DNA of 64,000 nt, taken from assembly GCA_964540145.1 (NCBI GenBank), contig CAZILS010000001.1, forward strand, positions 19,640 to 83,639, in the 5' to 3' direction. Source of the stretch: an uncultured archaeon (lineage in GTDB: Archaea; Iainarchaeota; Iainarchaeia; Iainarchaeales; CAZILS01). The notes beneath the pieces were generated by a model. That model did no database searches, was not told the origin of the DNA, and was given only the letters and a program-made list of their open reading frames with translations. The translations under genes and the position numbers were made by a program. Of the stretch, positions 40,201-59,342 are shown piece after piece. Within the stretch, counting starts at the first letter, position 1. Each line of letters starts with the position of its first letter.

Positions 40201-40244
40201 TCTCTATTTTTACCCTGTTCTACGGCAGGGTGTGTTTTAGCTCC

Positions 40245-40616: not shown

Positions 40617-40641
40617 TACCCTCAATATAATAACGAGTATC

Positions 40642-41097: not shown

Positions 41098-41523
41098 TTC
41101 GCACACTGTTTTGGTGGAACCCCTGTCTTATACATAACACCCTTTTGTGGCCAGGATAGTGGTAAGTGCGCCCCCCCTTTAACGAATCCTTGCGATATAG
41201 GTTGCGGGCTTTGGTGTGTTTGGTAAAGGCCGCCCCTTGTGGGGCTTATTATTTTTGTGGTAATGCCTTATTTTTTCAGGTTTCTTTAACAGGGAGAATT
41301 AGCTTCCGCCCGCAATCGACCCCTTGGCTAATTTCAGGAGGGTTGCGGTCCACACGGCAGCGCTCCCTTGTTTTGGTGAAGGACGCCGGTGCGGGTTTTT
41401 TGGTTTTGTTGGCCGGGCCGGCGGGCGCCGGTTTTGGGAAATTTGTGTTTTGCCACCTTAAACAGCGCGGTTAGGGTTGTGTTAAGGGTTATTTGTGCCG
41501 GGGTTGCCGGGGTAAAAAGAAGA

Positions 41524-42117
41524 TTATTTCCGGATTGCTTTGTAGTTTGAATAAAAGTTGGTCAGCTTAGGGGATGCTTTATAAGAATCCCTAAACCAGG
41601 GGTTTGAGACAACTTTTTCGGCTTCCTTCAGGAGGAGTGATTTATAGCCGGGGTCAACGGCAGAGCCTTTTGAAAGGATTGTGCCGATGTTGTTGAGCTC
41701 GTTGTCCAGGCTTTCATGTTCGGCAGAGGTTGTTGTGACAAACTTCCTGACGAGCATGTTTTCTATGGCTTTTGCGGCCTCTTGGGGAGTAACGCTCTTC
41801 TCATTCATATAATAAACCGCCTTCCAGTCCCCCTTCCCCTGCCAATAGTGGCTCGGGTTCTTTCCGGTCTTGAAAAAGTCGGTTAATTGGGTAAAAACAC
41901 CTTTTGGGATGACAACGCAGTTCTTCCCCGGCCTTAGGTATGGGACATCCGAAAGAATGCCGGCCCGATGGTATTTGTACACTTTTCCAGAGGATTTACA
42001 GACGTTTTGGGTGTAGCCATATAGTGCCCGGAATAGCTTTTGGTATGTGTAGGATGAGTGCTTGATTGTTTCAGGCACAATAAATTTGTACTGGATGAAA
42101 TAACCTTCCAAGACCAT
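41524..42117 (-). CDS. Hypothetical protein (197 aa)
   Basis: Clean ORF with ATG and an upstream AATATATAAT box. No motif recognised. Confidence 0.5.
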   Translation of the reverse strand: MVLEGYFIQYKFIVPETIKHSSYTYQKLFRALYGYTQNVCKSSGKVYKYHRAGILSDVPYLRPGKNCVVIPKGVFTQLTDFFKTGKNPSHYWQGKGDWKAVYYMNEKSVTPQEAAKAIENMLVRKFVTTTSAEHESLDNELNNIGTILSKGSAVDPGYKSLLLKEAEKVVSNPWFRDSYKASPKLTNFYSNYKAIRK

Positions 42118-42283
42118 TCTGACCCCCCACAGTTCCGCTAATAACCCATATTATATATTGAGTTTTCTTATGTATAATTTTATAACATAATAAATAAAAA
42201 GCTACTCCACAAAACAGAGTTATATAAGATAAAAATCCTATAATTAGTGGAACCTGCGCCAAAAGACGAAAACGCAGAAACAA

Positions 42284-42580
42284 CTAGCGCCTATACCTGT
42301 AATGGCTGGGCTTGCTTACTTCTTCCTTTTCCGGGGCGGAAGCACCGCTGCCGGCAACCAAAACAATGTCCTTGGCAGCCTTGACATTCTTATACGGAAT
42401 ACTCTTTTCACTTATAATTTTCTTGGCTTCTTGCTTGGACTTGGCCTTGAGAGCCTCTGTTGTAATGGTCTCTAGGCGGCCCTTCTCGAGGTTAATAACC
42501 AGGTCGAAGACCTTGCCCCTAAACTCCGCATTAGTGGTGTAGATGTCCATCCCGAAAAGCTTTGAAAGTTTCATAGACAT
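42284..42580 (-). CDS. PRC-barrel domain protein
   Basis: KLFGMDIYTTNAEFRGKVFDLVINLEKGRLETI pattern. AGGAGGT before the ATG and TTTAAATACATAAAAG upstream. Confidence 0.6.
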   Translation of the reverse strand: MSMKLSKLFGMDIYTTNAEFRGKVFDLVINLEKGRLETITTEALKAKSKQEAKKIISEKSIPYKNVKAAKDIVLVAGSGASAPEKEEVSKPSHYRYRR

Positions 42581-42830
42581 GCTTATTACCTCCTTGCTGT
42601 CTAAAGCGTTATTATAAAGTCTTTTATGTATTTAAACATTTGCTTTAAATCGAGGTGTATCTTTAAATAACACCTGAAAAAAACGTGTTCTACATAACTG
42701 CGGTGTCCCGCAGAAAGCACCTGCCCAAACCACACGCCGCGGCAAAGGCCGCAAAGTGGCGTCTACATAATAGATAAGCCGAGTTTATAGCTTAGATTAG
42801 ATAGTTTTTAATTAATAATTCTGCTAAAGA

Positions 42831-43124
42831 ATGCCTATTATGGATTTCAGAAAAGGCTTGCCGAGTTACTTTTTCAGGGAGAAGCAGGCGCTTGCCTTGC
42901 TTTATTTGTATGCTGAAGACAGGGAATGGTATCCTATGCTTTTGGCGAAGGCCATTGACTGCACATATCCCCACATTTCCCACATGTGCGGGCAGTTCGA
43001 GGAACTTGGCCTTATTGAGGTTTCGGCCAGGGGGAGAAAGAAGATTATAAAACTCAGCCCAAAAGGGGCGAAATTGGGGAAGATTTTGGCCGAGTTTGTG
43101 GAGCAGTTTCCCACCCAAAAATAG
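42831..43124 (+). CDS. Small winged-helix transcriptional regulator
   Basis: YPMLLAKAIDCTYPHISHMCGQFEELGLIEVSARGRKKIIKLSPKG. Confidence 0.6.
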   Translation: MPIMDFRKGLPSYFFREKQALALLYLYAEDREWYPMLLAKAIDCTYPHISHMCGQFEELGLIEVSARGRKKIIKLSPKGAKLGKILAEFVEQFPTQK

Positions 43125-43148
43125 TTGTTTTTTAGATGGGGGGAGACT

Positions 43149-43235
43149 GGCGTTATTAGCGGAAGTGAGCGGAAATGGCGGCAATGGCCGCTCTATTGTG
43201 GAAAAGTGAGGGTGGGCGTTATTAGCGGAAGTGAG
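43149..43235 (+). repeat. Exact 21-bp direct repeat GGCGTTATTAGCGGAAGTGAG (two copies, 66 bp apart)
   Basis: Copies at 43149-43169 and 43215-43235, plus a third AAGTGAG at 43204. Located between the converging wHTH and recombinase genes. Confidence 0.8.
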
Positions 43236-43260
43236 GGGCCTGCCGGTCCCCATGCCCACA

Positions 43261-44184
43261 CTACATGTTGTCGAAGGGGCTCTTAACTTTTTTCAGTTCA
43301 TCTGTCGAGACCTTGGTGTAAATCTGGGTTGTTGAGAGGTCGTTATGGCCCAACAAAACCTGGATTTTACGAATACTCTCTCCGGCCTCGAGGAGGTGGG
43401 TTGCATAGCTGTGCCTTAGGGAGTGAGGTGTAACATGTTTCTGAAGGCCTGCTTTTCCCGCAGCAAGCTTGATTATCCTCTGGATTGTGTCCGGGGAAAT
43501 AGGCTTTCCATTCTTCTTGGAGAAGACATATTCACTCTTGATTTTCTTGCGCTTGAGGTATTTTTTCAGCTCAGTAATCCACGAGGTTGAGAGTATAATC
43601 ACACGGTCCTTGCCGCCTTTCCCGCCGCGAATTCTTGCAATCTTTTCCCTGAAGTCAAGGTCTTCGGTCCTGAGCTTGACAGCTTCGCTGACCCTGCAGC
43701 CCGCAGAGTAGAGGAACTCCAGGGTGAGGCGGTTTCTTCCGGCCTTGGTTGCCTTGAACAAGGCCTTGATTTCCGGCTTTGTCAAAACAGTGGGGAGTTT
43801 CTTGGATTTTTTTGGGATTTTGATATCATCAACAATCTTGGATTTGAGGTAGTTGTGGAAGTAATATTTTAGGGCGGCGTGTGCGAGGGCGAGGGTGGCG
43901 CCCGAGCAGTTCTGGCTTTCGCGTTTATAGGCCATGAAATTGACAATGTCCTCGCGCCGTGCGTCCACCGGGGCTTTTTTAGCATAGTTGAGGAAGTCCT
44001 TGACGTACATCAAATACATATCAAGGGTTTTTGGGGAGTAGCCTGCTATGAGGAGCTCCGAGCGGAAGCCCTTCAGGGAGTGTTCGTGTTTTTGCCAGGG
44101 CTTCGGGGCGGCGGTTCCGGCAGAGGCCCCTGTCCGCGCCTTCACACTTTCAGGGACTGCGGCTTGTTTTTCAGCATAATCCAT
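43261..44184 (-). CDS. Tyrosine recombinase, XerA/XerD-like
   Basis: SAGCRVSEAVKL (Arg I), GKGGKDRVI, HSLRHSYATHLLEAG (box II H-x-x-R), LLGHNDLSTTQIYTKV (catalytic Tyr). Confidence 0.85.
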   Translation of the reverse strand: MDYAEKQAAVPESVKARTGASAGTAAPKPWQKHEHSLKGFRSELLIAGYSPKTLDMYLMYVKDFLNYAKKAPVDARREDIVNFMAYKRESQNCSGATLALAHAALKYYFHNYLKSKIVDDIKIPKKSKKLPTVLTKPEIKALFKATKAGRNRLTLEFLYSAGCRVSEAVKLRTEDLDFREKIARIRGGKGGKDRVIILSTSWITELKKYLKRKKIKSEYVFSKKNGKPISPDTIQRIIKLAAGKAGLQKHVTPHSLRHSYATHLLEAGESIRKIQVLLGHNDLSTTQIYTKVSTDELKKVKSPFDNM

Positions 44185-44280
44185 GTTACTATTGGGGTTC
44201 CTGTCTTTTTAATCTCTCTGTCCGCACCGGAAATTTCGCCTTTGGCAAGGATTTAAACAACATCGGAATACAATAAATGT

Positions 44281-44955
44281 ATGTTCAAGGCTGTGCTTTT
44301 TGATTTGGACAATACGCTCATGGATTTCATGAGCATGAAGAAAATTAGCTGTGAGGCCGCGATTTCGGCGATGATAGATGCGGGCCTTGATTTGGAGCAC
44401 GACAAGGCATATGACAAGCTGTTTGAGCTCTATGGGAAGTATGGGATAGAGCACCAGAAGATTTTCCAGGAGTTTCTTAGTGCGGTGAATGGGGAGATTG
44501 ACTACAAGATTTTGTCCAGCGGGGTAACCGCATACAGGAGGGTGCAGGCAGGGTTTATGCGGCCTTATCCTCATGTGCGGGCAACGCTTATTGCATTAAG
44601 GGAGCGCGGGATTAAACTTGGGATTTTGAGTGACGCCCCAAAAATGAGAGCCTGGCTTAGGCTGAGCGAGATGAGCCTTACGGATTTCTTTGATACTGTT
44701 ATAACTTTGGACGATACCGGGGAGATGAAGCCCTCGCCGAAGGCGTTCAGTGCTGCGGTGAAGGGGCTGGGTGTTGAGGCCGGCAGGATACTTTTTGTCG
44801 GGGATAACCCCGAAAGGGACATCAAGGGCGCAAAAGCCGCGGGGATGAAGACAGCGCTTGCGAAGTACGGGCAGATATTCCCCGACGGGCATGTTAAGGC
44901 GGATTACGAGCTGAAGGGCGTGCGGGATTTGCTCGGGATTGTGGGCAAAAAGTGA
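44281..44955 (+). CDS. HAD-superfamily hydrolase
   Basis: AVLFDLDNTLMDF (DxD motif I), LSDAP, KPSPKAF, VGDNPERDIKGA. Confidence 0.8.
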   Translation: MFKAVLFDLDNTLMDFMSMKKISCEAAISAMIDAGLDLEHDKAYDKLFELYGKYGIEHQKIFQEFLSAVNGEIDYKILSSGVTAYRRVQAGFMRPYPHVRATLIALRERGIKLGILSDAPKMRAWLRLSEMSLTDFFDTVITLDDTGEMKPSPKAFSAAVKGLGVEAGRILFVGDNPERDIKGAKAAGMKTALAKYGQIFPDGHVKADYELKGVRDLLGIVGKK

Positions 44956-45019
44956 TTCGGTTTCCGAATCGGATAGCTTTATATATATTACAATACCAAT
45001 TCCTGTGGAGGTGGGAGTT

Positions 45020-45187
45020 ATGGCATTGATGGCCAAAACTAAAATTGCGGGCGTTCCGCGGGCACCGGATTTTGCGAGGAGAGTTGTGCCGAAGTGCATG
45101 AACTGCGGGCACTATATTGAGAAGCCGGTGGGGATATACTCGAGGAGATTTTGTTCTGTCGAGTGCATGAACAGCTATTTGCTTTGA
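45020..45187 (+). CDS. Small TRASH / zf-FCS-type zinc-binding protein (55 aa)
   Basis: CMNCGHYI...FCSVEC spacing, GGAGGTGGGAG before the ATG, ATATATATTA box upstream. Confidence 0.5.
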   Translation: MALMAKTKIAGVPRAPDFARRVVPKCMNCGHYIEKPVGIYSRRFCSVECMNSYLL

Positions 45188-45192
45188 TTTCG

Positions 45193-45972
45193 ATGAATTC
45201 AATAGACTGCGGGGAAATACACAACAAGATAACCTCCGGGATGAAAACTTTTTTTTCGGAAAGCGGCACGAAGAGGGCTGTGCTTGGGCTGAGCGGGGGA
45301 GTAGATTCTGCGCTTTGTGCAAAGCTTGCGGGCGATGCTTTGGGGAAGGAGAATGTTACCGCCTTATTAATCCCCGAGAAAGGCGTTACCCCGGAAGCGA
45401 CGGTAACTGCTGCGGAAGTGCTCGCAAAGCAATTGGGCATCGAGTATGTTCGGCAGGAAATCAATGATTTCCTGGTGCCGTTTGGCAAGTTGGGATGGGC
45501 GCAGAATAAAACAGCGCAGGCGAACACAAAGGCGAGGGTGAGGGCTGTGCTGCTTTACAATTACGCAAATTCTAATAAGGCGTTGGTGGTAGGGACGGGG
45601 AACAAGAGCGAAATGCTTCTTGGTTATTTCACCAAGTTCGGGGATGCGGCCGCCGATTTATTGCCGATAGCGGATTTGTGGAAAAGCGAGGTGTTTGAGC
45701 TTTCCGATTATTTGGGTTTGCCGAAGGAGATTTTGGAGAGCGCGCCGAGCGCACACCTTTGGGAGGGGCAGACCGACGAGAAGGAGCTGGGTGCGGGCTA
45801 CGCAACAATCGATGCGATACTGAAGATGTATTTCGAGGGCGGGATGGGCGAGAAAAGCATTGTGGGAAAAGGCTATGGCGAGGGGCTGGTGCGGGGGCTG
45901 ATTAAGAGGGTTAATTTGTCGGAGCACAAGCGGCACATGCCCCGGATTGTTAAAATTGGGAAGGGCAAATAA
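45193..45972 (+). CDS. nadE: NH3-dependent NAD+ synthetase
   Basis: VLGLSGGVDSAL PP-loop, GTGNKSE, GYFTKFGD. Confidence 0.9.
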   Translation: MNSIDCGEIHNKITSGMKTFFSESGTKRAVLGLSGGVDSALCAKLAGDALGKENVTALLIPEKGVTPEATVTAAEVLAKQLGIEYVRQEINDFLVPFGKLGWAQNKTAQANTKARVRAVLLYNYANSNKALVVGTGNKSEMLLGYFTKFGDAAADLLPIADLWKSEVFELSDYLGLPKEILESAPSAHLWEGQTDEKELGAGYATIDAILKMYFEGGMGEKSIVGKGYGEGLVRGLIKRVNLSEHKRHMPRIVKIGKGK

Positions 45973-46005
45973 GCTTTATTAAGGGTTTCCCGCATTAATT
46001 ATTCG

Positions 46006-46203
46006 ATGGCAAGAACAGTTTACGGGGAATGCAAGATTTGCGGGCAGAAAACACAGCTTCTTGGGACAATATGCGAGAACTGCAAGCTCGAACTCGAGGC
46101 GAAGCACGACCCATCGAGAGAAAAAAAACAGGAAAAGCAAAGCAAGGAAGACATCGAGAAGGAGCTCGCCGAAAGGCGGAGAGACCCTTCGTTTTGGAGA
46201 TAG
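46006..46203 (+). CDS. Small zinc-ribbon protein with a charged tail
   Basis: CKICGQ...CENC. 65 aa. Confidence 0.4.
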   Translation: MARTVYGECKICGQKTQLLGTICENCKLELEAKHDPSREKKQEKQSKEDIEKELAERRRDPSFWR

Positions 46204-46263
46204 GTTCTTGAGGTTCCAAGGCATCTGCTTTTAGGTAGGCCGGAATCCGTTTTAGGGGGGGCA

Positions 46264-46887
46264 TCATTTGAAAGGCAGGGACTGCTGCATCGGCGGGAGC
46301 CGACCGTACGTTTCCACACTTTTCACGAGGTGCACAAGGTCTTTCATGGTGCCGTTCAAGAGGAGTTCCTCGAAATAGAGGAGCCTGTGCCTCGCACTTT
46401 CCCTCTTTTTGGGGTCCGAGAGGCTGAAGACAGCCTCGCCGTAGCCCATTTTCCTTAGGGACCCGTCCGATCTTCTCAGTCCGAGGGCTCCTTTCACCTC
46501 GGCATAGCCCGCCCTCCTGAGAAGCCTTGAGTTGAGTATGTTTTTTGAGTATAGTTGCATTTCGGCCTTTTCCTTCGTGAGCTTGTCCAGAAGCACCGGG
46601 TCGAAGAGCTCGGCCATTTTGGTGAGATAGAAGTCCTTCTGGACCTGGGAAAGCTCCCTCCAGTCCCTCTTTAGGATGCCTATCTTTTTCGCCTTGCGGT
46701 CATACCAGGGGAAGTTCACGACTATTGCGCCGGTGGGGCCGACGCCGTAGCCGAATTTCATTTCCCTGATTTTTGATTTGAGAGCCATCCCCCGGGGCTT
46801 TACGATGGGGCGTGGGCGTGCCTTAGGGATTCTGTGCTTTACCCCTCCCCCTTTCTGGGCTTTTTTGCCGCCCTTTTTTCCAAGCAT
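46264..46887 (-). CDS. Hypothetical protein with a basic N-terminus (207 aa)
   Basis: Clean ORF with an ATG. No motif recognised. Confidence 0.5.
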   Translation of the reverse strand: MLGKKGGKKAQKGGGVKHRIPKARPRPIVKPRGMALKSKIREMKFGYGVGPTGAIVVNFPWYDRKAKKIGILKRDWRELSQVQKDFYLTKMAELFDPVLLDKLTKEKAEMQLYSKNILNSRLLRRAGYAEVKGALGLRRSDGSLRKMGYGEAVFSLSDPKKRESARHRLLYFEELLLNGTMKDLVHLVKSVETYGRLPPMQQSLPFK

Positions 46888-46939
46888 GGAAAACTATTGG
46901 GCGAACCAATATTAATTATTTGCCCCCTAGGGTATTCCT

Positions 46940-47635
46940 ATGGTTTATTATGATGCCCATGTGCATTTGGACATGTTCAGGGAGGGGGCGTTGGAAAACT
47001 TCGCCACAGGGGATGTGAGGGCAATCGCGAACTCCATCGATATGGAGAGCTATGGGTTTGCGGTGAAGGAGAAGAAGGCAAACCCGAATGTGGTGAGGGT
47101 GTTTTTGGGGCAGCATCCCGACAGGGCCGACCTTGCGAAGGCAAAGGGAATCGCTGCGTTCATAAAGGAAAATCCTGTTGACGGGGTTGGGGAGATTGGC
47201 CTTGACCCGAGGTACGGGGATATTGATGAGCAGAAGAAGGTGTTTAAGCTTTTTTTAAGGGTGGCGAAGGCGAAGAAGCTGCCTGTTGTTGTGCATTCGA
47301 GGGATGTTGTGCAGGACGCAATGGACCTTTTGAAGGGGTTTAAGGGGAGAGTGATGATGCACTGGTTTCCAGGGGGTGTTGAGGAGATGCGGGAGTGTGT
47401 TGCGAGAGGATATTTCATTGGGTTTACGCCTTCGCATGCCCGGCAGGACAAGCTTATCAAAGAAACGCCTGTCTCGAACATGCTGCTGGAGACCGACAGC
47501 CCTGTTCAAGGTCGGCAGCCGCATGATGTCAAGGATTTGTACAAGGTTATAGGGGAGAAGAAGTGGCTAGGGGAGAAGGAGTTTGAGCAGGCAATAGGGA
47601 GGAATGTTTTGCGGTTCTTGGGGATAGGGGAATAG
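46940..47635 (+). CDS. TatD-family metal-dependent hydrolase/DNase
   Basis: YYDAHVHLD, GEIGLD, VVVHSRD, LLETDSP. Confidence 0.85.
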   Translation: MVYYDAHVHLDMFREGALENFATGDVRAIANSIDMESYGFAVKEKKANPNVVRVFLGQHPDRADLAKAKGIAAFIKENPVDGVGEIGLDPRYGDIDEQKKVFKLFLRVAKAKKLPVVVHSRDVVQDAMDLLKGFKGRVMMHWFPGGVEEMRECVARGYFIGFTPSHARQDKLIKETPVSNMLLETDSPVQGRQPHDVKDLYKVIGEKKWLGEKEFEQAIGRNVLRFLGIGE

Positions 47636-48314
47636 TCTTTATACATAACATTTATACTAAAAGAGTTTTGGCTAAAATAAGAAACTTTGTTCTTTTCCCT
47701 TTTGGCTTTTTGGGGCCTATTTGTGCTGTAAGCACTACCCCAAATAGCGATTATGCAAAAATGGTTTGGAATTATTTACTATTTTACGCGTTTCCTTTCG
47801 GTAATCTTATAAAAAAGGGCATTATTTTTCGCTTTCCTAAGCTGGGGAAATTGATGTTTTTCAGGGTGCGCAGAGGCCTGAACTGGGCGAGCCCAGGATG
47901 AGAGATAGCATGCTTTTTTGAAACCCTCCTCAAACCACCCTAAAACAAGAGTTAGAAGGGGATAAGCCACGGACACTCCCTAAAAACAGGTCCTAATCGC
48001 TGAAATAACGCGTTTTTTGGAGGACGGGGGCTGAATGCCCGGTGTGTTGGGAAAGCCCTTTGCCGGCGCACGCTCCCCGCAGGAGCGATACTCGTTTTTT
48101 CATAGTCTACGCCCCGGCAAAAACAGGAAAAAACCTTGTCTACATAACAGATATTTGTGGTGTGGGGAGGGAGAAGGCTGCTCCCCCCTTGGGCAGGGCC
48201 GGGCGAAGCGAAGTGAAACGCCGCAGCACCCGCTTCAGGTTCCCCGGGAAAGATTGAATTTAAGCCAAGCTTTCAGGAGATGCTGATAGCAACTGCGGAG
48301 GAAAGGCAGGCAGG

Positions 48315-48680: not shown

Positions 48681-48738
48681 GCAGTAGTTGCTCACTCCAG
48701 CTTAAATAGCTTTTGCCCTTTCTCTATTCGGTGATAAT

Positions 48739-48939: not shown

Positions 48940-48980
48940 GTTTCGGAAAGTGTTAAATAGGGCGGAACCGTAATTCATTT

Positions 48981-49488: not shown

Positions 49489-49509
49489 AATGGAAAGAGG
49501 AATTATTAA

Positions 49510-50082: not shown

Positions 50083-50097
50083 TTTTTCTACGGGCAT

Positions 50098-51774
50098 TCA
50101 TTTTTCCATTTCCTCCCTCATCTCCTCGAGAATCGCTTTTTTCAGGCGCTCTTTTTCAGTGAGAGGCGCTTTATTTTCAGCAGGGGGTTTCGGCGCGGCT
50201 TTGGCTGTGGGCTTTGGTTTCTCAACAGATTTATTCCTTGTATCTTCCCTTTCCCTTCTCCGTCTCACCCTCTCGGAGATTCTTTCAGCAGCCTCCATAT
50301 CTCCCAGTATTTCATCTTTTTCTGTTTTTTTTGCGGGTTTCTTCATTGCGGCAAAGGCTTCCTTCGCCTTTGCAACGCCTATATCAAAGAGATCCCTCCG
50401 GAGGAAGTAGGCTGCGGCAATTCCTGTTCCTGCGAGGAGAATAAGGGCGAAGATAACGAATAAAAGCGTTAAATCATCGCTTCCTTCGGCAGGGGCTGTT
50501 TCTCCGTTGCCGTCCGTAGAAGGGAAAAAATTCCCGATATTGTTGACAGTGAGATTAAGTTCCTTCGCGGAAATGTTCCCGGTCTTGTCTGTTGCGGTTA
50601 TTGTTAGAGTGTAAGTGCCGTTAGGAACCTGCAAAGTGTTCCACTTGGCGACGTAGCCTGAAGCAGATTTTTCAGTGAACAAGGTGCCTTCGGCAGCCCC
50701 CGAATAGGAGAAGTTTATTGAATCAAGGCCGGAAGCATACTCCCCGGAATCGGAGACAGCTGCGCCGAAACGTGTTTGCCCGGAAACAGTTCCTTTGGGG
50801 GCGTAGGTAACCTTCACTTTGGGGGAAGTGCTGTCATAAACAACATAGAAATTTTTGTCGCAAAGATCCCCAAAAGCGGCATCTGCAGCCAGGAACACGA
50901 AGTTGTATGTTCCTTCCTTTGTGAGGGCGTACTTTGTCGAGAGTTTTGTGCCTGTGCGCCCATCCGCCAATTCTTCGGCAGTTCCATCCGGCAGTTCCAC
51001 CGAAAGCACAGGCCAATACATTGTCTGTGAGCTTATTTCCCTGATTTCAATTTCCAAATCCCGGGTGTTTGTGTAGGCAGGCAAATTTGACTTGAAATGC
51101 AGGTCGCAGGTTGAGGCTGCTTCAGCAAAAGCGAGTAAACTGTAAGGGCCGTTTGTTCCCGCCCTGTCGATTGCTGAAACCTTGTAGAAGTATGTCTTTC
51201 CCTCGCGAAGGCCTCCCTCTATTCCTTTTCCCTTGTCGTGGTATGAAAGGCTTTCCTGCTCTTCCGAAACAAGCGTAGAAAGGTTAGTTTCCAGTTCCAT
51301 TGTGAAGTCCCTGTAAACATTGTAGCCTTTGATGCCGGAAGGGCTTTCGCCGCGGTCTTCGGCCGCATCCCACGTAACCATGATGGTGCCGTCCTTCTGG
51401 GGGGTTGCGGTAACGTTTTTTACGACTGAGGGGGCAAGCCTGTCTATGTTAACCCTGTAATGCGAGGTTTCGGAACAGCTTGAGCCGAAACAGGCCTTGA
51501 TATGGAAGAACCAAGTGCCGTCTTTCTTGCAGCCTGCACGGTAAGAGGTTTCGGAAAGGTCTATCACAGAGTCTGGTTCGGTTGCGGGGAGGGAATCATA
51601 TTCATAGGAGTAGCCGGTTGCGCCCTCAACCTCGTTCCATTTGAATATCGGGTTGCAGTCCCTTGACCACTCGCTTTGGGCGGGGTGGGTTGAGGAGGAG
51701 AGCTGCGGTTTTGAGATTCCGAAGGCTAAAGGGAGCAGCAATAGCAGCATCAAAATAACGATTTTTTTGCGCAC
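50098..51774 (-). CDS. Secreted surface protein (FN3/Ig-like), single C-terminal TM helix and a long Lys/Glu-rich cytoplasmic tail
   Basis: Paralog of 34773..37004 (see findings). The start is uncertain: GTG 51774 or ATG 51750, ahead of the signal peptide LLLLLPLAFG. Confidence 0.7.
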   Translation of the reverse strand: MRKKIVILMLLLLLPLAFGISKPQLSSSTHPAQSEWSRDCNPIFKWNEVEGATGYSYEYDSLPATEPDSVIDLSETSYRAGCKKDGTWFFHIKACFGSSCSETSHYRVNIDRLAPSVVKNVTATPQKDGTIMVTWDAAEDRGESPSGIKGYNVYRDFTMELETNLSTLVSEEQESLSYHDKGKGIEGGLREGKTYFYKVSAIDRAGTNGPYSLLAFAEAASTCDLHFKSNLPAYTNTRDLEIEIREISSQTMYWPVLSVELPDGTAEELADGRTGTKLSTKYALTKEGTYNFVFLAADAAFGDLCDKNFYVVYDSTSPKVKVTYAPKGTVSGQTRFGAAVSDSGEYASGLDSINFSYSGAAEGTLFTEKSASGYVAKWNTLQVPNGTYTLTITATDKTGNISAKELNLTVNNIGNFFPSTDGNGETAPAEGSDDLTLLFVIFALILLAGTGIAAAYFLRRDLFDIGVAKAKEAFAAMKKPAKKTEKDEILGDMEAAERISERVRRRREREDTRNKSVEKPKPTAKAAPKPPAENKAPLTEKERLKKAILEEMREEMEK

Positions 51775-51894
51775 GCCATTAATAGGCAGTCTAAAATAAT
51801 ATAGTTTTCGGCGCACGCAGCTTCGCTGCAAATTGCATTTCGCCAAGCCCTGAAAAAGAAAACAATTTTATAGCTAAAAGACGTAATATTAACA

Positions 51895-52146
51895 ATGCCA
51901 AGAAAATACTTAGTCGGGGCTATCGATGCCTGCAAGGTGGGGAATTACAGGCCGATGGAGTCCTTTTTGAAAAAGCACAGGCCGAGTGCGGGGTTCCTTG
52001 TGGAGAACGGGGCAGATGCGGAAAAACTTATCGGATTGGGCCTTACCGCAGGGATGCTGAGGGAGATCGACCCCGGCCACTTCACACAGGACTTCCTGGA
52101 AGAATTGGGCTTTGAAAGGATGCAGGCGAGCTGCGCATGCAGGTAG
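51895..52146 (+). CDS. Hypothetical protein (83 aa)
   Basis: ATG with TTTTATAGC about 30 nt upstream. No motif recognised. Confidence 0.4.
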   Translation: MPRKYLVGAIDACKVGNYRPMESFLKKHRPSAGFLVENGADAEKLIGLGLTAGMLREIDPGHFTQDFLEELGFERMQASCACR

Positions 52147-52365
52147 AAAAAAGGTTAATTGCCGCATATAAGTATTGGGTTGGCTTAGTTAAGGAAGAGG
52201 TAAAAAACCTGAAAAAGAGCTGAATGCTACATAACCTTTTTTTGTTTTAGTGAATTTTTGATGTGGCTCCCCTAGTATTGGACTTGTAAGGGTTCCGATT
52301 ATTTTTGGCAGAGGAAATCTGCGCCCCCAGAGGGCTTTTTATAATCACTCACATTATTAGTAAAT

Positions 52366-52698
52366 GTGAGCGCATATTTAAATAGTAGGAAAAAGATAAT
52401 ACTTACAAGGCACTTTGCGGAAAAGTGGGCGGATAGGATTGCGGCATCCGGAACCATAGCAAAGTCTGAACAGGATAAGGAAATAATCCCCGCGGTGAGA
52501 TTAGCACTAGAGACGAAAGCCCATAAGCTTGTCTACGATGGTGAGGAACATAACGGCAAAAAATACCGGATGGTTTGCGAAGTAAAAAAAGAGGCAATTA
52601 CTTTGGTTGTTGTTGATACTGAAAAGGCCTTGGTTTTCAAAACTGCTTGGAAGGCCAAGCCGTGGGAGAAGAGTTATTTTAGGGAGGCGGGACTATGA
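52366..52698 (+). CDS. Putative toxin (DUF4258-like small RNase-type fold), partner of the downstream antitoxin
   Basis: IILTRHFAEKWADR near the N-terminus and ITLVVVDTEKALVFKTAW near the C-terminus. GTG start. 4-nt overlap with the next gene. Confidence 0.4.
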   Translation: MSAYLNSRKKIILTRHFAEKWADRIAASGTIAKSEQDKEIIPAVRLALETKAHKLVYDGEEHNGKKYRMVCEVKKEAITLVVVDTEKALVFKTAWKAKPWEKSYFREAGL

Positions 52699-53012
52699 AA
52701 TGCCCGATTTGTGACGGAGAGCTTACGGAAAAAGAACACAAGTATAAGCTGGGCGGCAAGGAGATAGGATACCAGTCGTTCAAATGCTCTAACTGCAAGG
52801 AAGACCTTGTTTTCGGGGAAGAAGCAGACAGGGTTTTTAGGGATGTTGCCAAATACAAGAAAGAGCTGCATTACAAGAAAAAGCTGAGTTATGCGGGGAA
52901 TTCCCTTGTTTTGAGGATTCCTGCGAAGCTTGCGAAGAGCATGGATATGCACAAGGGAACAACAGTCGATATTGTTCCCGGGAAGAAGGAGTTTACTGTT
53001 AGTGTTAAGTGA
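52695..53012 (+). CDS. Antitoxin-like fusion: MqsA/YgiT-type zinc ribbon plus SpoVT/AbrB domain
   Basis: MKCPICDGEL...FKCSNCKEDLVFGEEADRVF, then GNSLVLRIPAKLAKSMDMHKGTTVDIV. Confidence 0.65.
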   Translation: MKCPICDGELTEKEHKYKLGGKEIGYQSFKCSNCKEDLVFGEEADRVFRDVAKYKKELHYKKKLSYAGNSLVLRIPAKLAKSMDMHKGTTVDIVPGKKEFTVSVK

Positions 53013-53016
53013 TTTT

Positions 53017-53139
53017 ATGGAAGTAAGAGAAGATGTTGTCAAGGAAGTAATCAGGGAATGCGAAGCCATGGAAAAGCGCGGCGACAAGGCAATGCCCCTG
53101 GATGAGATAGACAAATTGTGCGGGGAAAATCCCAAGTAA
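53017..53139 (+). CDS. 40-aa ORF resembling the C-terminal half of the two antitoxins at 53367 and 63096
   Basis: The ending MPLDEIDKLCGENPK compares with MSLKELKKLSGA and MSLKELDKLCGK. Confidence 0.3.
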   Translation: MEVREDVVKEVIRECEAMEKRGDKAMPLDEIDKLCGENPK

Positions 53140-53366
53140 ATCCTTATTGCTACATAACCTTTTTTTGTTATAGTGGGGCAAACGTGTGCGCCCCCCCGTA
53201 GGAAAAAATCTCTTGGTTTCGCACAGGAAGTTTGGCAGCGGAAATCCGCACCGCTACCAATGCGTTAAAGCCGGCGTTTTCGCTAATCACAGGTATGCTC
53301 CAAAAGGACATTCCCGAAAGGCTTAAATATCACCTAAGCACACATTATGTGAGTAGAGGTGAGTTT

Positions 53367-53624
53367 ATGCACAACGTGAATTTTAGGGGGATAATTTCCG
53401 AGTACACTAACAGGGTTCTTGGAGTCATTAAGGAAAAATATGGCCTTAAGGACAAGTCAGAGGCTCTGGATAAGTTCGCCGAGCTCTATGGAGAGAAATT
53501 TGTTGAACCGGAGATCAGGAAGGAACTTATTGAGGAAGTACTGGAAACAGCCAAAGAGGCTAGAGAAGAGCACCCTGACCGAAGGATGTCCCTGAAGGAG
53601 CTGAAAAAGCTCTCAGGCGCATGA
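53367..53624 (+). CDS. Antitoxin-like protein (paralog of 63096..63356)
   Basis: YTNRVLGVIKEKYGLKDKSEALDKFAELYGEKFVE...HPDRRMSLKELKKLSGA. GAGGTGAG before the ATG. Confidence 0.6.
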   Translation: MHNVNFRGIISEYTNRVLGVIKEKYGLKDKSEALDKFAELYGEKFVEPEIRKELIEEVLETAKEAREEHPDRRMSLKELKKLSGA

Positions 53625-53625
53625 T

Positions 53626-53908
53626 TTGTTTGAGTTTGACCTAACCGAAAAGTGCAAAAAAGCGCTAGAGAAATTGGAAAAGTCTGATCAGAAGCTTAGC
53701 CAGGCGCTTTACCGGAAAATGGCAGATTATTTCTCGGGACCACGAGACCATTGATTTCTACAAGAATTTGAAGCACGACAGCAAGGAATTCAAGCGGGTT
53801 CATCTCACAAAGCAACTTGTATTCACCTTTAAGGTTGATAAACGCAGGAATTTCATTAGGTTTGATGTCCTCGACCACCGCGGCAAGGCGTACAAAAAGA
53901 AAAAATAG
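53626..53908 (+). pseudogene. RelE/ParE-like toxin gene disrupted by a frameshift
   Basis: Frame 1 reads MFEFDLTEKCKKALEKLEK...GPRDH and stops at 53752. The next frame continues IDFYKNLKHDSKEFKRVHLTKQLVFTFKVDKRRNFIRFDVLDHRGKAYKKKK, colinear with the intact paralog at 63361..63645. Confidence 0.65.
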
Positions 53909-54787
53909 CCTAACTTATACATAACGGATTTTTGATTTCATATCTTGCCGGCCCTAGCTCCCCCCTAAGCAGCACTGAGCCGGAGATAGCTTCGAATTCC
54001 GCGCGCTAATTTCCCGGAAATAACCTCAAATTAGCCTTTAGTCCCCAGATACGTGTGTTCTGGACGTATTTGGCTATTTGGAGTGGCTTGGAATGCCTTA
54101 CGAGATTAAGCATAACCATGATTATGCTGTAAAATTGCGAAGGGAATTGGAAAAAAAGTGTCAAAAATTAGGCTCTTTTTTGAGTAGGGGAAGTAAGGGC
54201 CCCTGTTCATTTCGCTTCGCTCAAGGGGGAGCGGCTGTGGGGAGCACAGCCCACGGATGTTTGTTATGTAGAAGATGAGGTGTGAGTGGCCTTGAATTTC
54301 CCTGTTTTAGGGTGGCTTTGAAACAAGGAGTAGCTTTGAACCCTTCGGGCAGGCTGTGAGGAATGGGGTTAGTTTCCTTTCATATGTGCGCATGTGTGAA
54401 TACAGCGTACGCACACCCCTGAAATAATGGATTTTTGGGAAAATCCGGGGAAATTGAGCCGGCCGGAACAGCGGGATTGTAATGAGGATACGCACAGTAA
54501 ATCCAGACAAAGTTGTATGTTTTGGGCTATATCATCGGGTACTGTTTTGTCCGCGCACTCATTGGCCTTACTGGGGAGCAACACTTTTCTCTGCCCGCCT
54601 GCGCAAACCAGATGCGCCTGCGAACGTGTCCAAGAATTTGTGCAAAAAAATCCGTGGGGTTGAAATGCGGAAAGTGCGCTCCCCCTTGGAGCAAGGGAAT
54701 GGCCCTGAATAGCTGTTATTCCCCCGACCTATTTTGGCGTTTTTTTGGGCGTTTTAAGCAGGGGCTAGGGGGCGGTAATAGAGGTGT

Positions 54788-54812
54788 GTTATGTAGTATT
54801 TAGATACATAAC
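54788..54812. repeat. Inverted pair GTTATGTA-N9-TACATAAC (imperfect 11-7-11 palindrome)
   Basis: GTGTTATGTAG TATTTAG ATACATAACTA. The arms match at 8 of 11 positions. Lies about 200 bp upstream of the HTH gene at 55019. Confidence 0.7.
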
Positions 54813-55018
54813 TAATATTCGTTTAAGAAGCCAGAACCAAGCGGTTAGTTAAGGAAGCAATGCAACTTTTTGATGCCTGACAACTAACTTTTACGCCCCC
54901 TTCATATTATGTAGCAAAATAACCTCAAAGATTATTAAAGACAAATTTCCAAATATTTTCGATGCCACAAACTGCTATTCTTTCCATAATTCTTTCCGCG
55001 GAGCACTCCGGTAAAGAA

Positions 55019-55171
55019 ATGAAGCGTCTCCGTGAAGAAGCTCGATTATCCAAATCCGATTTGGCCAAGCGTATGGGCATAAGTGTTTCCACTTTGAACG
55101 ATTATGAGGAAAGAAGGTCCCCCCGAAGTCAAAAAATACTCGAGAACTTCGTAAACGCGCTTGAATCATAG
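55019..55171 (+). CDS. XRE-family HTH protein (controller-protein-like, 50 aa)
   Basis: MKRLREEARLSKSDLAKRMGISVSTLNDYEERR. Confidence 0.6.
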   Translation: MKRLREEARLSKSDLAKRMGISVSTLNDYEERRSPRSQKILENFVNALES

Positions 55172-55561
55172 GGCTTTCTGTATTTTCTTGATGCACTTTT
55201 CCGGGCTCTTTTTTAACTCGTGTTCCCAAACTCGGATTACCTTCCAACCCCGCTTTTTTAGCTCCCTGTTTACCTTGCGGTCCCTTTCTTTATTTGCGCT
55301 TATTTTTGGTTCCCAAAAGCCCCTATTCGTGGCGGGAATCGTTTTGCATTTGCAACCGTGCCAAAAACACCCGTCCAGGAACAAGACCGCCCTATGTCCG
55401 ACCAGCCGAAAATCCGGGGTGCCGTACAACTTCGGATGGCCCCTGTAGCGAATCCCGTTCTTTCTAAGCAAAGAGGCCAATTTTCGCTCTATTTTGGTTT
55501 TTTTGCCCTTTATTTGGGACATTAGCTCGCTTCGCTTTTCTTTTGTAAAAATATCCGCCAT
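55166..55561 (-). CDS. vsr: Very short patch repair endonuclease
   Basis: FTKEKRSELMSQIKGKKTKIE, GTPDFRLVGHRAVLFLDGCFWHGC, WKVIRVWEHEL. ATG at 55561. Confidence 0.85.
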   Translation of the reverse strand: MADIFTKEKRSELMSQIKGKKTKIERKLASLLRKNGIRYRGHPKLYGTPDFRLVGHRAVLFLDGCFWHGCKCKTIPATNRGFWEPKISANKERDRKVNRELKKRGWKVIRVWEHELKKSPEKCIKKIQKAL

Positions 55562-55607
55562 CGAAAGACATATATTGGCAAAGTTACAAAAAGATAGCGG
55601 GAAACGC
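55562..55607. promoter_or_regulatory. 46-bp divergent control region between vsr and the HNH gene
   Basis: Contains ACATATATTGG. It is the only non-coding DNA between the two start codons. Confidence 0.4.
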
Positions 55608-56252
55608 ATGGCTGCGAAAGATCTTATCCTTGACCTGCTAAAGAAGAATGTTGGAAAGCGGGTGCCGTCGTCCGAAATAAGAAAGAAAGCGAAAATATCG
55701 GATTGGGCCCGGTGCATCAGGACGCTTCGTCAAGAGGGTTGGAAAATCGAGTTGAGTCGGAAGGATGGGGGCGGGTACAAACTCGTTTCTCTGAGCAAAG
55801 GGCGAGGCGTAACGCGAACGCAAATCGACGCAAAAACGGCTTATTTAATCAGGTCGAGAGACAACTTCGTTTGCCAAGCCTGCGGTAAAAACGTAAGGGG
55901 CAAGGAAAATCACATCGACCATATTGTCCCGGTGGATTTTGGGGGCACCAACGAACTTGATAATTTGCAATTGCTGTGCAAGGCTTGCAACTTGGGAAAG
56001 AAGAATTTATACAAGGAACAAGATAAGGCACTTATGAAAAAGATCTTTGCTTCAACTTCTTCCAAAGAACGGCTTAGGCTATTTTTTGAAGGAAATCCGA
56101 ATAAGCTCTTATCCCCGTCCGTTTTGCAAGGGGTTGCTCACGTTAGGGACTGGGAGCGTGCTTTGAGATACGTACGTTCCGAAAACGTGATGAATATTAA
56201 ATATGCCCCCAAGAGCAAAAATTCGGAAGAAGGATATATCTATACTCCTTGA
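55608..56252 (+). CDS. HNH endonuclease with an N-terminal winged-helix-like domain (candidate restriction enzyme)
   Basis: CQACGKNVRGKENHIDHIVPVDFGGTNELDNLQLLCKACNLGKKN. Confidence 0.75.
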   Translation: MAAKDLILDLLKKNVGKRVPSSEIRKKAKISDWARCIRTLRQEGWKIELSRKDGGGYKLVSLSKGRGVTRTQIDAKTAYLIRSRDNFVCQACGKNVRGKENHIDHIVPVDFGGTNELDNLQLLCKACNLGKKNLYKEQDKALMKKIFASTSSKERLRLFFEGNPNKLLSPSVLQGVAHVRDWERALRYVRSENVMNIKYAPKSKNSEEGYIYTP

Positions 56253-57223
56253 TTTTTGTCCAAAACATTCTTAATGCTCCTTGCAATCGTTTCCACTACG
56301 GGCACCGGAACCGAGTTTGCAAACTGCTTATAGGCCTGGGTTTTGGAAACGGGAATCTTGAAATTTTCGCCGAACCCCTGTAAACGGGCGCACTCTCGTT
56401 CCGTCAAATATCTTATTCCCTCGTCGTTGAATCTTTTCTTATCGGGATCTTTTATTTTGGCAAAGGCCTGCGGGTCTCTTACGAGATTTCTCTCCCGGCC
56501 CATTCCTCCGCAAACCAATGCATTGGCTATCTTGTTCTTTTCATGAACCAAATACCCGAATCCGTTTCCCTTACTCTCGTGCCTTTTTTTATGTTGTTTC
56601 ATCCCCGCCAGCCTTTTTTTGGTGATGAAGTACTTTAGGGGGACTTCCTTTTCCAGAATGTCTTTCAAGGTTACCCCATTATCTTTTTTTTCCGGTATTT
56701 GATATCCGAACCAATCCAGATCTTTTCTGAATCCGACAATAAATATTCTTTCTCGATTTTGCGGCAGTTTAAAGTTTTTCGCATTCAGAACCTTGTGGAA
56801 TACGACGTAATCCATTTCCTCCAAAGAGGCCTTTATTATCCCGAATGTTTTGCCTTTGTCGTGTCTTTCCAGATTTTTTACATTTTCCAATAAGAACGCT
56901 TTCGGCTTTTTTTCTTTAATTATCCTCGCCACGTCGAAAAATAGTGTTCCCCTAGTGTCTTCGAAACCTTTTTTTTGGCCCGCTATGCTGAATGCCTGAC
57001 AAGGGAAACCCCCGACCAAAACATCGAAATTCGGGAGGGTTTTTGGATTAACTTGAGTTATATCTCCGGTAGGGTCTTCTCCGAAGTTTTCCTTATATGT
57101 TACCGCACAAAAATGGTCTATTTCGTTTGAGTATACCGCTTGAAACGCACGGGTGTTTTCGAAGCCTTTTCTAAGGCCCCCGATTCCCGCAAAAAGATCG
57201 ATTATTTTGAATTTATCGGACAT
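56240..57223 (-). CDS. dcm: DNA (cytosine-5)-methyltransferase
   Basis: Motif I IDLFAGIGG, motif IV GGFPCQAFS, motif VI ENVKNL, motif VIII QNRERIFIVG, motif X FANSVPVPV. 327 aa. Confidence 0.9.
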   Translation of the reverse strand: MSDKFKIIDLFAGIGGLRKGFENTRAFQAVYSNEIDHFCAVTYKENFGEDPTGDITQVNPKTLPNFDVLVGGFPCQAFSIAGQKKGFEDTRGTLFFDVARIIKEKKPKAFLLENVKNLERHDKGKTFGIIKASLEEMDYVVFHKVLNAKNFKLPQNRERIFIVGFRKDLDWFGYQIPEKKDNGVTLKDILEKEVPLKYFITKKRLAGMKQHKKRHESKGNGFGYLVHEKNKIANALVCGGMGRERNLVRDPQAFAKIKDPDKKRFNDEGIRYLTERECARLQGFGENFKIPVSKTQAYKQFANSVPVPVVETIARSIKNVLDKNQGV

Positions 57224-57324
57224 TCAATTTCCCCGGATAAATGTTGTTCTAACTCCCTTTAAATCCTTAGCCAGCAGGGTAGAGATTTCCGGTGTGGGTT
57301 ATGTATAAAACCACGCCCACTTTT

Positions 57325-57555: not shown

Positions 57556-57564
57556 ATCTCTCAC

Positions 57565-59308: not shown

Positions 59309-59342
59309 AGCTGGATGAGGCAAGCAAATAGGACTGATTTAC

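Follow-up and report, generated by a model that had tools for sequence, protein, structure and literature searches.

We analyzed a 64,000-nucleotide (nt) stretch of DNA (contig CAZILS010000001.1 of assembly GCA_964540145.1, positions 19,640 to 83,639 of the forward strand; hereafter the window), in which a short motif, TACATAAC, recurs between the genes. The window is archaeal, as it encodes aTrm56, TFE-alpha, and SerRS, and its proteins are singletons at 90% identity. The nearest relatives of its SerRS belong to DPANN metagenome-assembled genomes (MAGs) and those of its XerA recombinase to MAGs of “Candidatus Diapherotrites” (= Iainarchaeota), one at 85% identity and many at 57–69%, and the source is an Iainarchaeota (DPANN) archaeon. 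Related loci are designated L054, L233, and so on; w followed by a number is a position in the window, and L237-1303, for example, is the motif copy at position 1303 of locus L237. L054, from Candidatus Iainarchaeum, is collinear with the window over ∼26–46 kb, and the gene order NadE-HAD-XerA-PRC barrel-gene B-gene A-TFE-aTrm56-SerRS is also found in L233, L236, L237, and L239–L242. Since this order is kept in all of these loci and in L054, the part from 40.6 to 46 kb is core chromosome, with the recombinase a conserved resident. The variable part of the window is limited to ∼46/52–63 kb, where the GC content is lower and toxin–antitoxin (TA) and defense genes accumulate: TA cassettes, a relE pseudogene, a restriction–modification (R–M) module composed of an HNH restriction endonuclease, Dcm, and Vsr, with a small helix-turn-helix (HTH) gene adjoining it (54962–55171), a Csa3/CasR-like winged HTH (wHTH) protein, an LmuB ATPase, and an HD nuclease. 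The “accessory region” to which an initial annotation, made from the sequence by a model, had assigned the motif thus holds for this part and not for 40.6–46 kb. The usual promoters here are canonical TTTAAA/TTTATA boxes located 25–35 nt before mostly leaderless start codons.

We counted 13 copies of TACATAAC in the window, on the plus strand at 41131, 42691, 47642, 48141, 52228, 53151, 53918, and 54805 and on the minus strand at 7654, 54263, 54788, 57298, and 61363, whereas 0.53 copies are expected from dinucleotide shuffles (the largest value in a shuffle being 3) and 1.25 from a third-order Markov model. It is the most over-represented 8-mer in the window. Eleven of these copies, between 41 and 57 kb, are intergenic, the one at 57298 merely overlapping an over-called GTG open reading frame (ORF). 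These are the eleven that the initial annotation had listed (eight plus, three minus) and placed outside coding sequence, and a position scan found every one to be exact; its two TACATAAT variants, at 42764(+) and 54906(−), and a related TACATAAG reported near 794–803, which lies at 797, were recovered as well. Its total was short by the copies at 7654 and 61363, both inside ORFs. Neither belongs to the family: 7654–7661(−) lies within an epimerase ORF (7161–8090) and lacks the flanking consensus, 61363–61370(−) lies within the LmuB-like ATPase ORF (59343–61781), and neither matches the R1 profile described below. They are chance occurrences, and their number fits chance expectation. As to the proposed confinement to 41.1–57.3 kb, the segment from 40.6 to 57.4 kb holds 52% of the intergenic bases of the window, so that the confinement of all 11 intergenic copies (P ∼ 7e-4) is real yet less extreme than it appeared. 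The second most over-represented 8-mer across the window, GGAGATAG (14 copies against 1.9 expected), reflects a Glu-Ile codon pair rather than a signal, since nine of its 11 ORF-internal copies lie on the sense strand in a single reading frame (G-GAG-ATA-G).

The position of the motif relative to genes obeys an orientation rule. All 10 copies found at most 36 nt past a stop codon (w41131, w47642, w52228, w53151, w53918, w57298, L237-1768, L241-2771, L241-7388, and L241-13014) are co-oriented with the gene that ends there, at distances of 3–36 nt, and a copy located 24 nt past tRNA-Met in L242 is co-oriented with it too. In long convergent spacers of 426, 679, and 485 nt, the copy sits 33, 6, and 3 nt, respectively, from the stop codon of the co-oriented gene. 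There is one element per operon and not one per gene, as seen for three-ORF and two-ORF cassettes, and in L241 the element stands past an inserted extra gene instead of past gene A. Placement at junctions between gene units, as the initial annotation had described it, survives. At least seven copies have no co-oriented gene downstream.

The consensus of 19 exact intergenic copies from five genomes is AAAA(−13..−10)-N6-TT(A/C)-TACATAAC-a-N4-TTnGT, in which position −1 is never G or T, in line with the (C/T)T(A/C)TACATAAC context first proposed; the fuller core reads AAAA-N6-TT(A/C)TACATAA(C/T), and AT-rich relatives use the TACATAAT form. Because the copies resemble each other downstream of the 8-mer (best local-alignment z-scores of 9.4, 6.9, 5.0, and 4.4) and not upstream of it (best 3.8), the 8-mer represents the 5′ edge of a directional element. 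In eight of 25 copies, a second box, GC(T/G)CCC(C...) followed by T(T/A)(A/G) and hereafter named box B, is found 26–31 nt past the motif, against a background of ∼1.4% per copy. Six of these bipartite (class I) copies are in the window (41131, 48141, 52228, 53151, 53918, and 54263 on the minus strand), with box B 29–31 nt downstream, and two are in L241; seven of the eight are at unit ends, and a TATA-like box is missing downstream of class I copies. There is a modest excess of A-runs before the motif and of T-runs after it, and a deficit of the opposite arrangement: a tract of four or more T within ∼31 nt downstream accompanies 48% of 33 copies, compared with 29% of random intergenic positions (P ∼ 0.016). 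These tracts are strong (T5–T7) at 52228, 53151, and 53918 and missing at 54263, 57298, and 42691. Searching the window and 11 related loci with a class I sequence profile (R1) added no copies to those already known.

The first class I element (41128–41181, +; 40.6 bits) combines TTA-TACATAAC at 41131–41138, a T4 tract, and box B GCGCCCCCCC at 41168–41177, and lies 33 nt past the stop codon of gene A (40642–41097) in a 426-nt convergent spacer. The element at 48138–48192 (+; 42.9 bits), with GTC-TACATAAC at 48141–48148 and box B GCTCCCCCC at 48180–48188 followed by TTGG, closes the noncoding module that we call unit 1 (see below), 167 nt before the stop codon of a convergent CoA-binding gene. 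Three elements follow one another along the small cassettes. At 52225–52275 (+; 34.2 bits), TGC-TACATAAC (52228–52235), T7 and T4 tracts, and box B GCTCCCC (52266–52272) are found 5 nt past a stop codon, with the TATA box of the three-ORF cassette that comes next ∼100 nt downstream; at 53148–53200 (+; 44.7 bits), TGC-TACATAAC (53151–53158), a T7 tract, and box B GCGCCCCCCC (53188–53197) are found 11 nt past the stop codon of that three-ORF cassette, in a sequence similar to copy 52228 (z = 6.9); at 53915–53969 (+; 40.9 bits), TTA-TACATAAC (53918–53925), a T5 tract, and box B GCTCCCCCC (53957–53965) are found 9 nt past the stop codon of the relE pseudogene. The last of these is convergent with the minus-strand element at 54220–54273 (36.3 bits; motif at 54263–54270, box B GCTCCCCC at ∼54225–54232), which has CTCCCCC-TTGrGC..GCGAAGCGAArTGAA in common with copy 48141 (z = 5.0). 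Between copies 54263(−) and 54788(−), the ∼500 nt at 54280–54787 are relatively GC-rich and hold only short overlapping ORFs, for which Pfam gave no hits and Rfam no match.

The other copies carry the motif without box B. The spacer between the PRC gene and xerA holds a conserved pair, which opens with TTC-TACATAAC at 42688–42698(+); from this copy it is 111 nt to the start codon of PRC, a gene on the other strand, and 132 nt downstream to gene C. The second, GTC-TACATAAT at 42761–42771(+), follows 73 nt later, with a TATA-like box 12 nt downstream of its core (42764) and the start codon of gene C (42831) 59 nt downstream. At 47639–47775(+), TTA-TACATAAC (47642–47649) lies 6 nt past the TatD stop codon and, together with ∼130 nt of conserved noncoding sequence, starts unit 1. 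A back-to-back pair at 54788–54812 reads GTTATGTA-N9-TACATAAC, i.e., 54788(−) followed by 54805(+), with its arms pointing outward, the opposite of dif. The TACATAAT variant at 54906–54916(−) is directly upstream of the TATA box GATTATTAAAG of the opposite-strand HTH gene at 54962–55171. TTA-TACATAAC at 57298–57308(−) is 22 nt past the stop codon of a minus-strand ORF of 79 aa and precedes dcm, with the TATA box of that gene (ATTTAAAG) ∼33 nt and its ATG 67 nt downstream, and the one-mismatch variant TTC-TACATAAG at 794–804(+) is 20 nt upstream of the SRP54 TATA box and 64 nt upstream of its ATG. More generally, co-oriented motif-only copies stand 12–38 nt upstream of canonical TATA boxes at w797 (SRP54), w42764 (gene C), w57298 (dcm), L054-2523, L233-3411, and L236-9415, and others occupy divergent regions, where they point toward the downstream gene. 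Start codons are found 53–153 nt from the motif, and a canonical TATA box lies in between at dcm, gene C, the HTH gene, cassette A, and the genes next to L236-9415 and L054-2523. Given these variable distances and the separate TATA boxes, the neighboring protein genes do not have the motif as their core promoter.

The motif is conserved across the Iainarchaeota. In seven other loci of the phylum (119 kb), we found 13 exact copies of TACATAAC in 20 kb of intergenic DNA, where ∼0.6 are expected, and four in 99 kb of coding DNA, two of which are a conserved SerRS codon string; the 8-mer is thus ∼20-fold enriched in the intergenic DNA of these loci. It is missing from the Micrarchaeota loci L001 and L004. 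The genomes that carry it span 22% to 52% GC. In the xerA-PRC spacer, TACATAA(C/T) is present in nine of nine genomes in the same relative orientation, usually as a pair with copies 40–74 nt apart and located 72–146 nt from the PRC start codon. In L233, the closest relative, the pair is spaced by 74 nt, compared with 73 nt in the window, while the 66 nt between the copies have completely diverged; the promoter of gene C beside the pair is ∼90% identical between the two. Since copies are kept at orthologous positions while their flanks diverge, we take the motif to serve a function of the host and not to be a mobile repeat.

Unit 1 provides a second case. It is an AT-richer module of ∼500 nt (47642–48148, +) bracketed by two copies in the same orientation, and the same architecture is found in L054 (2995..2523, 472 nt) and L237 (1768..1303, 465 nt), the copies being 465–499 nt apart across the three genomes. 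As these are three different gene neighborhoods, both flanking copies travel with unit 1. Its first ∼130 nt align between the window and L054 with a score of 20.5 (null, 8.9 ± 1.4), and the first stretch is 63% identical to that of L237 over 132 nt; the region starting at w47642 is orthologous to L054:2863–3002(−) and L237:1646–1775(−). The module is noncoding, with stop codons in every frame and indels that are not multiples of three. When the three orthologues were folded, no significant structure was obtained, and the sole recurrent feature was a small covarying hairpin with a T-run, ∼65–85 nt past the motif; an nhmmer search with unit 1 returned nothing beyond its training sequences. A third comparison concerns the junction of gene A and gene B, which measures ∼8 nt in L054, L236, L237, and L242, contains 426 nt beginning with a class I element in the window, and, in L241, accommodates an additional gene (192 aa) with a class I element behind it. 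The footprint of element 41131, sought in L233, showed no homology there beyond the gene B terminator.

A folded RNA does not seem to be the common denominator of the copies. The 55 nt past 25 copies gave folding z-scores between −2.4 and +2.5 and shared no structure, an alignment of the elements contained no paired columns, the long noncoding stretch at 41125–41523 had nothing significant on either strand (z ∼ −0.2), and Rfam 15, searched with the window and L054 at gathering and permissive thresholds, returned only tRNAs.

The neighborhood of the conserved pair contains other sequences kept in the lineage. After tRNA-Met, six direct copies of CTTACTTT(T) are spaced by ∼45–50 nt in the window (40203–40620), and the spacer from tRNA-Met to gene A holds four to six copies of CTCACTTT(T) in L054, L236, L237, L241, and L242; these repeats are a lineage-conserved, iteron-like array. 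A second box, TAG(C/T)GGAAGT(A/G) accompanied by a G-run or C-run, forms an inverted pair in every genome (window 42130(−), 43157(+), and 43223(+); L233 2995/4043; L236 10868/11425; L237 10857/11474; L054 6311/7112). One member is at the xerA stop codon and the other just upstream of gene B, so that they bracket the PRC gene and the TACATAAY pair, and their core AAGTGAG is the reverse complement of the CTCACTT iteron. These boxes may resemble archaeal origin recognition boxes. Gene A, which encodes a conserved 151-aa wHTH-like protein, is closely preceded by two or three GTAATTAC palindromes (∼40560–40640 in the window, with equivalent sites in all relatives) that look like an operator for its autoregulation. 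The tRNA-Met orthologues of L237, L241, and L242, located between TFE and gene A, have insertions of differing lengths in the anticodon-loop region, presumably introns, that are missing in the window, L054, L236, L239, and L240.

Based on these observations, we can best explain TT(A/C)TACATAA(C/T) as a cis-signal with a defined strand orientation, found throughout the Iainarchaeota (“Diapherotrites”) lineage and placed at the edges of transcription units. As to what it does there, we tentatively favor, at somewhat less than even chances, an orientation-dependent boundary element of the transcription unit, i.e., a terminator or insulator. Under this hypothesis, the full form (the motif, often a short T-tract, and GC(T/G)CCC 26–31 nt on, a few nt past the stop codon of the last gene) would act as a factor-dependent, orientation-dependent terminator or insulator, and at the motif-only copies upstream of promoters and in the xerA-PRC pairs the same factor would block incoming or antisense transcription and shield the promoter. 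A dedicated protein would recognize the site, either as DNA, where it would form a polar roadblock, or in the nascent RNA (UACAUAAC). Three lines of evidence lead us to this preference. First, the sense orientation is strict and the stop codons are close, with one element per operon. Second, box B and the T-tracts are found at unit ends, and the copy that closes unit 1 in L237 is only 9 nt from the stop codon of a convergent gene, whose end it faces and where a promoter would make little sense. Third, motif-only copies adjoin promoters, by analogy with TTF-I/Reb1 sites. We regard as rather doubtful the most explicit form of this idea, in which TT(A/C)TACATAA(C/T) and GC(T/G)CCC would constitute either a protein-read boundary system that stops the polymerase and shields the next promoter, as a counterpart of TTF-I/Reb1, or an RNA-read bipartite 3′-end signal feeding aCPSF1, a homologue of CPSF73; the latter would be analogous to a poly(A) signal with its downstream element.

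Several observations weigh against a terminator or insulator. The activity itself is something that we infer from geometry alone. About eight independent copies (the w42691/L233 pair, w54788/54805, L236-9415, L237-17317, and L239-1461/1512) are in divergent regions, with no annotated upstream gene to terminate, and the copies between xerA and PRC run antisense to both of their neighbors in nine of nine genomes. Most unit ends, including all of those in the first 40 kb of the window, have no motif, which therefore cannot be a general terminator. The T4+ tract accompanies only about half of the copies, with the modest enrichment given above. In addition, the first motif of unit 1 moves with unit 1 and not with an upstream gene, and in L054 its upstream neighbor is divergent, so that a start signal would fit at least equally well. 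Finally, the spacing of 26–31 nt between the motif and box B matches the distance from TATA box to transcription start in archaea.

These last points lead to a close rival, which we consider possible though distinctly open to doubt, namely a promoter-side element for the downstream unit, either an upstream activating or operator site or an unusual TATA-like core element. The downstream unit may be a short noncoding RNA with box B (GCUCCCCC) at its 5′ end, and the C-rich box B could pair with G-rich ribosome-binding sites. The initial annotation had offered a promoter, for example of short noncoding transcripts, as its alternative, citing ATACATAA in TATA-like contexts at 38770 and 42624, which are correct; a transcription-related role survives in modified form, whereas most of the downstream genes turn out to have their own canonical TATA box. 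The motif is A/T-rich, like the TATA-like TACATAAA at SerRS/aTrm56 and PRC and TACATAAG at gene B, and besides the spacing of box B, conservation is seen downstream of the motif only, with ∼130 nt of conserved noncoding sequence past w47642 traveling with it in three genomes. Where a co-oriented gene follows, the motif is 12–38 nt upstream of a canonical TATA box, the copies in divergent regions point to the downstream gene, and the back-to-back pair 54788/54805 has the normal layout of divergent promoters. Against this, at least seven independent copies, among them L237-1303, L241-13014, L241-7388, and L236-10890, have nothing ahead of them but the 3′ end of a convergent gene, at a distance of 9–91 nt. 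The start codons are at distances that vary from 53 to 153 nt, behind TATA boxes of their own; the strict invariance of the 8-mer is unlike that of TATA boxes; neither an AT-rich peak nor any other feature of a promoter recurs at a constant distance; and the downstream stretches show no significant or conserved RNA structure and no Rfam match. Stop-codon proximity is explained by a promoter only indirectly, via genome compaction. In the narrower form of an initiator with a TATA box at a fixed upstream offset, the idea was rejected, since only 42691 and L233-3485 have this arrangement and there is no general AT peak. Each model leaves about eight contexts unexplained, the divergent regions for a terminator and the convergent gene ends for a promoter.

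We consider it unlikely that the copies are binding sites of a nucleoid-associated or chromosome-organizing protein (an SMC roadblock or an origin-associated factor), to which the link with transcription units would be secondary. What suggests such a role is that the conserved pair of copies lies, in every genome, inside the block bracketed by the inverted TAG(C/T)GGAAGT(A/G) boxes, which may be akin to origin recognition boxes and whose core recurs four to six times past tRNA-Met. The asymmetric, invariant 11-mer would also fit a protein recognition site, and A-tracts, which flank the motif, are reported to aid SMC stalling in Thermococcus (PMC11840125). However, no Orc1/Cdc6 gene was present among the scanned ORFs or in the gene tables of the relatives' flanks, strict co-orientation and placement a few nt past stop codons are unexpected for an architectural site, and the copies cluster in the TA/defense island.

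A recombination site was the role put forward in the initial annotation, which had likened the motif to a Xer/dif arm and to an integron core site served by the nearby XerA-like gene. Several features could be read in this way: the direct repeats at 52228, 53151, and 53918 separate successive small TA units, the inverted copies 54805 and 57298 flank the R–M module, unit 1 with both of its copies occurs in three different neighborhoods, the junction of gene A and gene B, empty in four genomes, has different contents in the window and in L241, and a XerA gene is close by, at 43.3–44.2 kb as had been noted. That gene (43261–44184, −), the cognate Xer recombinase of the genome, passes the XerA_Arch equivalog model NF040815 (264.5 bits; cut-off, 220) and fails the integron integrase model TIGR02249 (209.5 bits; cut-off, 265), which matches only in two split stretches and thus indicates that the IntI additional domain is missing; this domain defines archaeal and bacterial integron integrases (PMC9668308). 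The order NadE-HAD-XerA-PRC is kept in all related loci, and the recombinase appears from these tests to be a housekeeping, syntenic gene that is not part of the motif system. An inverted, GTTATGTA-like partner with at most two mismatches was sought within 250 nt of the copies, and none was consistent, the matches being at chance frequency and at scattered offsets. An attC site, in which imperfectly inverted core sites, R″ (RYYYAAC) and R′ (GTTRRRY), are ∼50–150 nt apart, was therefore rejected, as the copies have no inverted R′ partner, no conserved hairpin, and no integron integrase to act on them.

The archaeal dif site consists of single 11-bp inverted repeats with a 6–8 bp spacer, of the form TAA...TTA (PMC2958812, PMC11840125). 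Across 33 copies, the best inverted 11-nt arm at spacers of 4–10 nt matched on average at 5.03 of 11 positions, compared with 4.99 ± 0.17 after shuffling (P = 0.44), and no TAA-N6–8-TTA inverted repeat with nine or more of 11 matches exists in the window. The pair 54788/54805 has no dif-like right arm either (matches of 3/11 and 5/11). Eleven intergenic copies in 16 kb, and several per 20 kb in the relatives, are not the single site of a dif system. A half-palindrome TACATAA-N5-TTTTGT was also considered as dif and rejected, since it is restricted to the T-tract-bearing subset and is missing in L241 and in the xerA-PRC pairs, and att sites of tandem integrations at tRNA-Met were dismissed because the motif has no similarity to the 3′ part of the tRNA. 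The intact paralogue of the relE cassette at 63.1–63.6 kb carries no copy of the motif, and no other recombinase or transposase gene was detected between 40 and 64 kb. With the tests for domain, partner, hairpin, and arm all negative, and orthologous core positions kept across genomes whose XerA proteins are 57–85% identical, membership in the integron and dif families is rejected, and recombination sites bounding exchangeable cassettes, whether integron attC or Xer pdif modules, are largely refuted and highly improbable.

Least probable of all are small mobile or selfish repeats resembling miniature inverted-repeat transposable elements (MITEs) or repetitive extragenic palindromic (REP) sequences and spread through intergenic DNA: the copies are short, extragenic, often just past stop codons, and sometimes in inverted pairs, and element 41131 is part of an insertion/deletion difference from four other genomes, but only the 11-mer and box B are common to copies whose interiors are unrelated, whereas mobile repeats stay similar over their full length, terminal inverted repeats and target duplications are lacking, copies are kept at orthologous sites over deep divergence, and no RAYT or IS200-type gene was detected.

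Three other candidates were discarded. A small ORF would read TAC-ATA-ACN (“YIT..FC..CAPP”) in some copies and GTG-CGC-CCC-CCC (“MRPP..”) in two, and was ruled out by its inconsistent frame relative to the upstream stops, intervening stop codons, and indels that are not multiples of three. The wHTH protein encoded by gene C is not a universal binding factor, being present only in the window, in L233, and, distantly, in L049. A PRC-barrel regulon is not supported, since L240 and L242 have second PRC paralogues without the pair.

Further features of the window deserve mention in their own right. The SRP54 gene (869–4021) is split by an intein with a LAGLIDADG homing-endonuclease domain. The defense island (54962–62938) encodes an Xre-type HTH protein, Vsr, an HNH type II restriction endonuclease, and Dcm, followed by the Csa3/CasR-like wHTH protein (57346–57900), an uncharacterized 436-aa protein, a Lamassu-like LmuB SMC-type ATPase (59343–61781), and an HD (Cas3″-like/YhaM-like) nuclease (61952–62938). 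The antitoxin and relE pair at 53367–53908, with a frame-shifted toxin, is a diverged duplicate of the intact YafQ/RelE pair at 63096–63645 (87% identity over 46 nt), and TACATAAC elements flank only the decayed copy. A 25-nt repeat, AACCTCTCCCGCT(T/C)CGTGCAGAAAA, occurs at 59284–59308, ∼77 nt past the stop codon of the 436-aa gene, and at 63644–63668, where it begins at the relE stop codon; the two match at 24 of 25 positions and have no similarity past the 25 nt.

The motif can be set against several known systems. Like integron attC sites, including those of archaeal integrons (Ghaly et al. 2022, PMC9668308), it stands past small TA cassettes in one orientation, and its ...TAAC ending resembles the RYYYAAC inverse core site; unlike them, it has no GTTRRRY partner, single-strand hairpin, or integron integrase, and its orthologous core-genome positions are kept. 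This corrects a likely mis-annotation, as TA and R–M cassettes with “...TAAC” repeats near a “tyrosine recombinase/integron integrase” are here not an integron. With Xer dif sites (PMC2958812, PMC11840125) and the pdif modules of plasmids it has in common an arm-like ...CATAA sequence, a nearby XerA gene, and small modules flanked by copies, yet there is no inverted second arm at spacers of 4–10 nt, the copies are many and not one, and the sole palindromic arrangement (54788–54812) has outward arms and a 9-nt gap. A comparison with archaeal promoters leaves a similar balance: the motif is A/T-rich, is in several cases 12–38 nt upstream of a canonical TATA box, and sometimes forms tandem pairs, but it is invariant and non-palindromic, and many copies have no downstream gene, in contrast to archaeal B recognition element (BRE)/TATA core promoters and upstream activating sites (UAS), such as those of the Ptr2 type.

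Eukaryotic ribosomal DNA offers polar roadblock sites that act as terminators and insulators, the TTF-I “Sal box” and the Reb1 site. These sites are, like the motif, asymmetric and orientation-dependent, stand both past units and just upstream of promoters while keeping one orientation, and are sometimes present in multiple copies, and their layout matches the succession element-unit 1-element as well as the conserved pairs. To our knowledge, no TTF-I/Reb1-like system has been reported in archaea, and the organization of gene expression in DPANN archaea is almost unstudied, with no Iainarchaeota in pure culture that we know of. A scan of public viral contigs with TACATAACCTTTTNTTGT gave only single chance matches in AT-rich marine contigs, as did a scan of metagenomes with CTACATAACCTTTTNTTGT among the matches listed, and in a full-text literature search the motif was nowhere described, the matches being primers and unrelated sequences. 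A lineage-specific extra terminator motif has reportedly been found in Haloferax.

Archaeal terminators consist of an oligo-U tract that acts with aCPSF1/FttA (PMC8716108, PMC7515710). The motif resembles them in standing just past stop codons at unit ends, in the sense orientation, often followed by oligo-T, and differs from them in that an invariant 8–11-mer with a C-rich box at 26–31 nt is part of no described terminator, and in that it marks a minority of unit ends and has additional copies that precede promoters or lie antisense between genes in tandem. We class the element among the cis-acting signals of transcription punctuation, none of which has been described in this lineage. It can be counted in every MAG of the phylum, predicts transcript ends, and could be used as bait for its binding factor, and if it is indeed a sequence-specific terminator or insulator, it would represent a new mechanism for archaeal transcription, in which U-tracts and aCPSF1 alone are established.

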